From: Eledone cirrhosa | Taxonomy: Eukaryota | Direction of reading: 5' to 3' | Assembly (NCBI GenBank): GCA_964016885.1 | Contig: OZ024742.1 | Coordinates: 20,646,001-20,710,000, forward strand | DNA length: 64,000 nt | Shown: piece after piece, positions 2,050 to 2,876 of the stretch | How positions within the stretch are numbered: the stretch's first letter is position 1 | How the letters are laid out: each line of letters starts with the position of its first letter | Program-made: the position numbers and the translations under genes | The notes under the pieces: generated by a model | What the model saw: the letters and a program-made list of their open reading frames with translations, nothing else | The model's database searches: none | What the model was told of the DNA's origin: nothing

Positions 2050-2492
2050 TACCTATCTACCGGCCTTTCTGGAGAATTGTAAAAGCACATATCGTTATAT
2101 GCTTTTTCTATGAAAATTAGTAGTGGGCAGACTAATTTGCATAGAGTGTGAGTACGCACCGGTTCAGCGGAGACGATAAAAACAAATAACGAAACGAAAT
2201 TAAATTTCGTTTCGTTTGTAACTCACTTTTGTATGACTGACGCTTAAACAATTAAGTTAAAAATGTACATCTACATATGCATACTGAAATACTAGTGTGT
2301 ATATGAATACACACACGTATACATATGTAGGTGTACCAAGTCTTCACTTTCGTTATTTGTTTTTATCGTCTCCGCTGAACCGGTGCGTACTCACACTCTA
2401 TGCAAATTAGTCTGCCCACTACTAATTTTCATAGAAAAAGCATATAACGATATGTGCTTTTACAATTCTCCAGAAAGGCCGGTAGATAGGTA

Positions 2493-2537
2493 AATATTGC
2501 TGATGAGTTGTAACAACAACGAAACTAGTTCAATATT
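2493..2537 (+). ncRNA. Type I hammerhead ribozyme (inverted 467-bp unit)
   Basis: AATATTG CTGATGA GTTGTAACAACAAC GAAA CTAG TT CAATATT read directly on the plus strand; predicted cleavage after 2530. Confidence 0.92.
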
Positions 2538-2825
2538 CCTTGTCTGGCTTTCTGGAGAATAGGGGGAAGGTGTTCCCCCAAAAACCAGTATGACTCTAAA
2601 ACCGGTTTGTCTGTGTGTTTACATACAGAATAGCTGGGCCGCTCACTGTAAAGCGACTAGTGAAAGACTTGGTACACCTACATATGTATACGTGTGTGTA
2701 TTCATATACACACTAGTATTTCAGTATGCATATGTAGATGTACATTTTTAACTTAATTGTTTAAGCGTCAGTCATACGAAAGTGAGTTACAAACGAAACG
2801 AAATTTAATTTCGTTTCGTTATTTG

Positions 2826-2876
<51 letters not shown>

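Follow-up and report, generated by a model that had tools for sequence, protein, structure and literature searches.

Four inverted structures in a 64,000-nt stretch of DNA (the window, analyzed here at its full length) raise the question of whether one insertion machinery produced them and which form of RNA it copied. The window reads as animal genome sequence that is AT-rich, dense in (TA)n tracts, and interspersed with LINE-type reverse transcriptase (RT) frames. Self-comparison recovered all four structures (elements A–D) where the initial annotation had placed them. Since an inverted-repeat finder was overwhelmed by the TA tracts, we used a self-BLAST in which interior array units, LINE regions, and positions 49600–56030 were masked. 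The RNA polarity of each arm was assigned with our own motif scan for type I hammerhead (HHR) cores and, in D, also with the coding frame; open reading frames of at least 120 aa within the window were considered. Judged by HHR polarity, the arrangement described in the initial annotation, a 5'-to-5' junction with 3' ends pointing outward, was confirmed in all four elements, and its statement that the outer ends run mostly into (TA)n holds for seven of eight ends, the exception being the right end of C (34309). Its description of tandem units plus one inverted copy applies to A, B, and C but not to D, which is a 5'-truncated coding element. The architecture is a known insertion type of Penelope-like elements (PLEs), found here on retrozyme-type arrays and on a coding PLE fragment.

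Hammerhead arrays and a coding fragment

Elements A, B, and C are composed of non-coding tandem units, each with one type I minimal HHR in the motif scan. The long arm of A (382..2348, minus strand; 5' end 2348, 3' end 382) contains 4 x 467 + 99 nt of a non-coding HHR unit (an array of 4.2 copies of the 467-bp unit), has minus-strand cores at 641, 1108, 1575, and 2042 in the motif scan, and meets a (TA)n tract (353..381) at its 3' end. The inverted arm (2348..2832, plus strand) is 485 nt long, that is, one 466-nt unit plus 19 nt, and its 3' end meets a second (TA)n tract (2833..2876). The extra 19 nt, TTTCGTTATTTGTTTTTAT, include the 1-nt junction overlap (T2348) and about 3 nt common to the TA tract, and immediately within the long arm a T run has lost 1 nt. 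The motif scan places a type I minimal HHR in the inverted arm (2490..2540, plus strand; core 2500, predicted cut after 2530), the fold of which shows stems I and II; this predicted ribozyme has a GUU triplet and the palindromic stem III AACTAGTT. The unit contains a long hairpin (2786..2820, plus strand): the 3' end of the arm is 12 nt past it, and the 5' end falls within its counterpart one unit upstream. The arm has 4–7 differences from every array unit.

Element C is a much longer array. Its long arm (23127..33736, minus strand) is composed of approximately 19 units of 553–558 nt plus 45–50 nt, with its 3' end entering the (TA)n tract at 22923–23126, and its inverted arm (33736..34309, plus strand; HHR core 33889, predicted cut after 33960) is one 554-nt unit plus 20 nt. 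In the motif scan, the array cores lie on the minus strand and the core of the inverted arm on the plus strand. The junction overlap is 1 nt, and the right end enters AT-rich sequence that is not (TA)n. Whereas neighboring units differ by a mean of 11.4 changes, units that lie four apart differ by 0–2 in 8 of 13 pairs, and this four-unit higher-order repeat of the interior points to later duplication at the DNA level. Within 24104–30781 a four-unit block of 2226 bp occurs three times in nearly exact copies, which reflect either very recent duplication or assembly expansion. The inverted arm has 10–15 differences from every array unit, and it shares with the 3'-most unit a base that is absent from all 18 interior units; the array is thus not the product of one pass around one monomer. 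A single rolling-circle pass would leave no higher-order repeats, in contrast to the four-unit pattern of C and a two-unit pattern of A at 2 informative sites.

Element B is composed of a 292-nt short arm of 0.56 unit (10033..10324, minus strand; HHR core 10156), which enters the (TA)n tract at 9852–10032 at its 3' end, and a long arm of two 521-nt units less 8–18 nt (10323..11350, plus strand; HHR cores 10590 and 11111), joined with a 2-nt overlap. An inverted arm of one unit plus 15–20 nt, as first described for the 467-bp and 557-bp arrays, is therefore a property of A (+19) and C (+20) but not of B, or of two of the three arrays. The B unit is 70% identical to the C unit, and stem II of their HHRs, as read from the motif scan, is retained through two compensatory changes. 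The 3' ends of the B and C long arms lie within about 13 nt of each other. The stop of the B short arm lies 9–13 nt from the stop of the C inverted arm despite priming approximately 270 nt apart (chance about 0.05). In one C unit, 9 nt are deleted over the hairpin at which these two arms stop.

The long arm of D (35342..36488, minus strand) is the 3' end of a 5'-truncated PLE, with a 3' UTR and a pLTR that contains a minimal HHR (core 35588), and it includes a broken RT-linker/GIY-YIG frame (about 36489–35846, minus strand). The inverted arm is a 160-nt pLTR piece (36485..36644, plus strand) that is 96% identical to 35558–35398, on the 3' side of the core; its start is no more than 3 nt from the predicted HHR cut, and it ends 56 nt short of the 3' end of the long arm, leaving the "tail" of PLEs. 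The junction overlap is up to about 5 nt, and the start of the inverted arm (36485–36489) lies in a stretch perhaps also covered by the coding frame of the long arm. This start may be the run-off copy of a cleaved RNA or a microhomology join. The coding frame (36382–36092 and 36088–35942), broken by a frameshift and stops, contains the pattern C..NVVY..C..C..YIGET..H..H of a GIY-YIG endonuclease with CCHH, preceded by a linker, CIDKKCITC, that fits Cx2-5CxxC as defined in PMC8557442. By motif and not from a clade tree, D thus has the predicted GIY-YIG/CCHH endonuclease of EN+ PLEs and a Neptune/Nematis-type linker, and its sequence marks it as a PLE that is truncated at the 5' end and carries an inverted piece of pLTR and a tail of 56 nt. 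Against the Pfam GIY-YIG model the fragment scores 19 bits, below the cutoff of 22.6. A HMMER search with it retrieved 688 relatives; in a word-indexed homolog search of the fragment against longer proteins, none of 28 candidates scored. D is truncated before the RT, and all three long relatives inspected contain upstream motifs that we take to be those of an RT. No RT domain is named at cutoff by Pfam (12 of 12 long relatives) or NCBIfam.

A separate GIY-YIG fragment lies across the TA tract from C (22465..22922, minus strand; 152-aa open frame). It scores 23.9 bits against Pfam PF01541 (cutoff 22.6) and is PLE-type by motif, and its similarity to the D fragment is not significant. No coding continuation was seen in six frames to the right of C (34310–35035), and no RT-coding PLE sequence occurs among the ORFs of at least 120 aa in the window, the long RT ORF being that of a LINE. 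In that LINE (13474–18702, minus strand), the endonuclease-RT frame of 1156 aa looks intact and is preceded by a frame of 585 aa; at 58200–61339 (plus strand) there is a decayed relative (about 80%), and at 38.5–40 kb there are ORF1-like remnants. A further D-like minus-strand element occupies 19540–20442; its CTGACGA core is at 19791, and 20339–20442 is a second, partial copy.

The HHRs of A–D have a one-pair stem III with a palindromic loop and a GUU triplet, or CUU in D. Rfam yields no matches over the window at the gathering threshold, and all five isolated motifs tested fold no better than shuffles (z from -1.7 to +0.5); such weak folding is expected for minimal stem-III variants. Folded as circles, the units give z scores of -8.7 (A), -6.1 (C), -4.3 (G), -3.3 (F), and -1.9 (B), with 20 shuffles each. 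Given a paired fraction of about two thirds in each unit (0.66–0.67), we dropped the location of stops in hairpins as a test. Among A, B, C, F, G, and the pLTR region of D, only the B–C pair (1 of 15) has common sequence above shuffled controls; in particular, A–C have no similarity to the pLTR region of D, the one PLE pLTR with which they were compared. By their tandem units and predicted HHRs, A, B, and C fit the non-LTR retrozyme type.

Orientation, targets, and paired 3' ends

Masked self-BLAST and alignments reveal four further head-to-head pairs in the window, H–K. In H (35131..35313; arms 35131–35181, minus strand, and 35183–35313, plus strand) both arms start 2 nt before the HHR core, and their 3' ends, 80 nt apart, each enter (TA)n. 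In I (9648..9851; 9648–9785, minus strand, and 9796–9851, plus strand) the arms have a common 5' start and 3' ends 81 nt apart, again each in (TA)n. J (63163..63352; 63163–63293, minus strand, and 63302–63352, plus strand) is an independent insertion of the same family, about 82% like I, with the two 3' ends identical in position. K (3037..3326) is an older pair; its HHR-like motif is degenerate, its arms have equal 3' ends, and it has a spacer of about 55 nt. Two additional elements on the plus strand have a 3' end in (TA)n and no inverted arm: F (47404..48091; HHR core 47729) is a single 656-nt HHR unit with a 26–32 nt terminal direct repeat, which could alternatively be a target-site duplication, and G (48153..49591) is composed of 2 x 631 + about 180 nt, with a CTGATGA core and no complete HHR. 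The equal 3' ends of K and the absence of an inverted arm in F and G imply that inversion is optional.

All five inverted pairs in which polarity is firmly marked (A, B, C, D, and H) are head-to-head (p 0.03 if orientation were random), as are all eight pairs when the weaker markers of I, J, and K are added; this count omits the markerless inverted repeats at 29–142, 9079–9185, and 44174–44237. By comparison with the ends that enter (TA)n, 3.4% of non-tract positions lie equally close to a TA run. Target-site duplications are unreadable within (TA)n, and the element ends are ambiguous with TA by 1–5 nt. An inverted 5'-truncated copy at the 5' end and a tail at one end are found in all four of A–D, the arms of which have 3'-end offsets of 74, 113, 150, and 56 nt, respectively.

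The positions of these 3' ends recur. Single-arm copies of the I/J family (62752–62883 and 302–352) each end at one or the other I/J 3' site, D-like 3' ends recur at 9631 (long end) and at 19542 and 20339 (short end), and the long end of H recurs at 8922. Independent insertions thus reuse the same pair of 3' ends, 56–81 nt apart. That the short-arm end can be the sole 3' end of a single-arm copy means that it behaves as a true start site should, and it bears on the proposal, made for head-to-head PLE repeats in PMC3846280, that a cDNA or antisense template loops back and is copied and that the other end is cut or joined at the target, so that only one end is a true RT start. We regard such fold-back or self-priming as unlikely, since it does not predict the recurrence of short-arm ends as sole 3' ends and since the A–D junctions are asymmetric (arm starts differ by about 100–900 nt) and have no palindromes; extension of both strands has, moreover, been shown in vitro (PMC11167929). 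In its favor, every short arm is contained in the sequence of the long arm, the H, I, and J junctions are symmetric, and the tail is attributed in PMC8557442 to EN-mediated resolution. A fold-back assembly chimera was rejected for A–D on the basis of the asymmetric junctions and of the differences between the A and C inverted arms and every array unit.

Rearrangement after insertion is far less probable still, be it recombination between TA tracts, template switching in replication, or assembly error. The (TA)n sequence is its own reverse complement, and assembly expansion could account for the exact four-unit repeats of C; however, one breakpoint of each inversion lies inside unique element sequence with a 1–5 nt overlap and not in a TA tract, the head-to-head polarity is uniform, and the inverted arms are as diverged from the array units as the units are from each other.

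Several observations concern the surroundings of these elements. At 9355–11350 (the copy at 9355, I, and B) and 35131–36644 (H and D), independent insertions face each other tail-to-tail across one TA tract, which suggests repeated targeting of the same microsatellite. A minus-strand piece at 37020–37191 resembles family I (72%) and then family H and is possibly a link between these small families, 36749–36841 resembles K, and CTGATGA cores beside element ends at 282 (minus strand) and 36688 (plus strand) are perhaps decayed hammerheads. The window start cuts a 56-bp tandem repeat (1–142) that is followed by an inverted copy of approximately one unit (86–142, 89% identical), in which no polarity marker was found. 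A short repeat of 47–105 nt lies between TA tracts at 8588–8658, 9297–9343, 38292–38362, and 45232–45301 (93–100% identity). At 7485–8245 there is a 93-bp tandem of 5 copies, with a dispersed relative of about 1.5 copies at 56978–57410; this tandem is a local expansion at the DNA level and has no ribozyme. Finally, 49587–55149 contains approximately 3 copies of a unit of about 1.7 kb that is mostly degenerate TA, part of which matches 46643–46901 inversely.

Probable dual priming and the form of the template

We propose that A–D were probably inserted by a PLE reverse transcriptase and GIY-YIG endonuclease through dual priming. At a (TA)n or AT-rich target, the enzyme would nick the two DNA strands, and each 3'-OH would prime a cDNA internally on the element RNA, as the ends suggest and as was shown in vitro for another PLE (PMC11167929). 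Priming would usually occur at one of two preferred sites 56–150 nt apart, with the RNA-sense 3' ends facing the target. The cDNAs would then stop, often at a structured site, and their ends would be joined with a 1–5 nt overlap. Once two strands have been primed and their cDNA ends joined, the junction is necessarily 5'-to-5' and the 3' ends point outward, as in the twin and dual priming described for L1 (PMC2837659). The template range of the short arm falls inside that of the long arm in D, H, I, and J, so the same RNA region was read twice, which indicates dual rather than classical twin priming; we thus rejected L1-style twin priming from one pass of one linear RNA. The arms of A–C leave gaps of 55–135 nt modulo the unit, and the ends of A–D have no poly(A). 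Against dual priming, the right end of C is not (TA)n, and the symmetric junctions of H, I, and J fit fold-back equally well.

Under dual priming, the sequence of D would be such a product of a coding PLE, and A, B, and C would be products of non-coding HHR units, that is, putative non-LTR retrozymes copied in trans. The initial annotation had assigned all four to the same PLE machinery. The features common to PLEs, the minimal HHRs of A–C, and D, the broken GIY-YIG endonuclease of which makes the PLE link visible inside the window, support PLE machinery. That a single enzyme was responsible is less certain, given the lack of detectable common sequence among A, B/C, and D and the presence of the second, dissimilar GIY-YIG fragment.

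Every arm of A–C crosses the predicted ribozyme cut, which argues that cut linear monomers were not the template. The template, which appears continuous across the predicted cut site, would have been circular or else an uncut multimer. Later tandem duplication of DNA, a step indicated by the sequence of C and suggested for A, would have added most of the array length. The initial annotation had proposed one full turn on a circular template. In a version of this proposal that we hold at somewhat less than an even chance, the RT makes one turn on a monomeric RNA circle produced by the ribozyme, displaces approximately 20 nt of its own cDNA, and stalls. The inverted arms of A (unit +19) and C (unit +20) are as this predicts, as is F (unit +26–32). 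Seven arms of at least one unit overshoot whole units by 19, 20, 32, 50, 99, 180, and -14 nt, a clustering toward zero with a post hoc p of 0.004 under a uniform model and of 0.006–0.045 under exponential truncation (mean 150 nt for 0.045), and the chance of finding two of three partner arms no more than 20 nt from a whole unit is 0.0003–0.01. The units also fold well as circles, and animal retrozymes are described as expressed in circular form (PMC7229834). The clustering weakens to p 0.037–0.17 without the A and C inverted arms and to 0.10–0.29 when F is also left out. The long arm of B requires a second turn, and the C array, with a base missing from all its interior units, is not the product of a single pass around one monomer. 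The common stop of the B short and C inverted arms, which were primed at different places, points to a stop determined by the site, as do the deletion over that hairpin in one C unit and the arms of unequal length that stop at the same site in H, I, and J. The long arms either read through this point one or more times or gained their length by later amplification.

A stop determined by the site is what would be seen on an uncut linear multimer, on which the RT, one unit upstream of its start, meets the initiation hairpin again, or a protein that occupies it, and halts there; this reading is also held tentatively, and we rate it and the circle about equal. Both one-unit arms start just 3' of a hairpin and end within that hairpin one unit upstream, and the stop common to the B short and C inverted arms is likewise in agreement. 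Weak cleavage is to be expected from the GUU triplets and the stem III of 1 bp, motifs of this kind are reported to have low activity (PMC4209133), and 8 of 9 frog retrozyme dimers are described as not cleaving (bioRxiv 10.64898/2026.07.22.740005). For the anole PLE, the dominant substrate in vitro is uncut RNA (PMC11167929). However, an end in a hairpin carries little weight when two thirds of each unit is paired, and the long-arm stops of A, B, and C differ (375 and 434 in the C register) and lie near their own priming sites. For the template of A–C as a whole, a circle and an uncut multimer with site-determined stops each come close to even odds, with a small share left to other forms. The one-turn proposal thus retains the overshoots near whole units, and it is weakened by its reliance on two arms, the 0.56-unit arm of B, the evidence for a site-determined stop, and the equivalence of a linear multimer; drawn from two or three arms and with a live rival, it is suggestive.

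The most specific form of the circle reading must be regarded as doubtful. PLE RT/EN dimers would prime both strands of a (TA)n break directly on retrozyme circles; it is similarly conjectural that an RT lacking RNase H usually ends just past one turn, and we would be hesitant to assume that the resulting unit plus overshoot, joined head-to-head to a second cDNA, seeds satellite expansion. If true, the junctions would be genomic proof of circRNA retrotransposition by PLEs and would explain the origin of PLE inverted repeats.

Relation to described elements

The initial annotation gave inverted 5' pLTRs as characteristic of Penelope insertions, and the architecture is indeed a published hallmark: inverted 5'-truncated copies and a (TA)n bias are described for PLEs in PMC8557442 and PMC3846280, a D-like structure is drawn as typical in PMC8557442, and head-to-head is given as the most frequent PLE arrangement in PMC3846280. 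The origin of tandem and inverted PLE structures is called undefined in PMC8557442. EN+ PLEs of the Neptune/Nematis type, as described in these two papers, share with A–D the adjacent inverted 5'-truncated copy, the one-end tail, and an apparent targeting of (TA)n, and share with D the minimal HHR in the pLTR and the C-terminal GIY-YIG domain with Cx2-5CxxC linker and CCHH (PMC8557442); they differ in the published tail length (30–40 nt, vs. 56–150 nt here) and in that A–C have no ORF.

Animal non-LTR retrozymes, as presented in PMC7229834 and bioRxiv 10.64898/2026.07.22.740005, resemble A–C in their non-coding tandem units with GC < 45% and a type I HHR per unit, fold well as circles, and have proposed PLE partners. 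The units of 467–557 nt found here exceed the 150–450 nt of PMC7229834 and lie within the 51–972 nt of the bioRxiv study. The predicted HHRs of A–C are of the minimal PLE type, unlike those of the animal retrozymes in the two studies, the main texts of which make no mention of an inverted terminal copy. The movers of animal retrozymes are argued there from co-occurrence and phylogeny only. The Chlamys MRC1 elements described in PMC8557442 are, like A–C, non-coding PLE derivatives in multicopy head-to-tail units; they are algal, mostly have no HHR, and resemble their autonomous partner at the 3' end, whereas no autonomous partner for A–C was found within the window.

On an AT-rich target, the purified PLE protein of the green anole (Poseidon) cuts the two strands and extends each of them; it is predicted to form a dimer and initiates internally, mainly on uncut RNA, at two nearby sites whose spacing equals the genomic tail (PMC11167929). 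The window elements agree with it in the AT-rich targets, in the two start sites that yield a tail, and in the both-strand extension proposed here; Poseidon belongs to another clade, and its priming is not based on homology, in contrast to the 1–5 nt TA ambiguity of the window elements. The main text of PMC11167929 draws no connection between this extension of both strands and inverted copies in genomes. The twin and dual priming of L1 described in PMC2837659 resembles our proposal in the use of two target 3'-OH groups, the joining of the far cDNA ends, and the outward 3' ends, and differs from it in that the insertions here have no poly(A), involve another RT and endonuclease, have nested arms, and are routine rather than occasional.

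The architecture, the microsatellite bias, the retrozyme–PLE link, and the circle hypothesis are already in print: a circular template is proposed in PMC4209133, there for PLE copies of more than unit length, and in PMC7229834, and pairs of minimal HHRs 100–700 bp apart on opposite strands are noted in PMC4209133. Full-text searches of the open literature returned no account of retrozyme arrays that end in an inverted copy, and no passage that connects the extension of both strands with PLE inversions, although subscription papers and supplements may hold either; within that literature, the inverted copy on retrozyme arrays is the new element. Because of the periodicity of the template, the length of an arm can be expressed modulo the unit, a measurable quantity with which a genome-wide count can separate a circle from a linear multimer. 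The architecture itself will be familiar to PLE specialists; the presence of PLE-type junctions on arrays that fit the retrozyme type provides insertion-level support for the partnership between retrozymes and PLEs.
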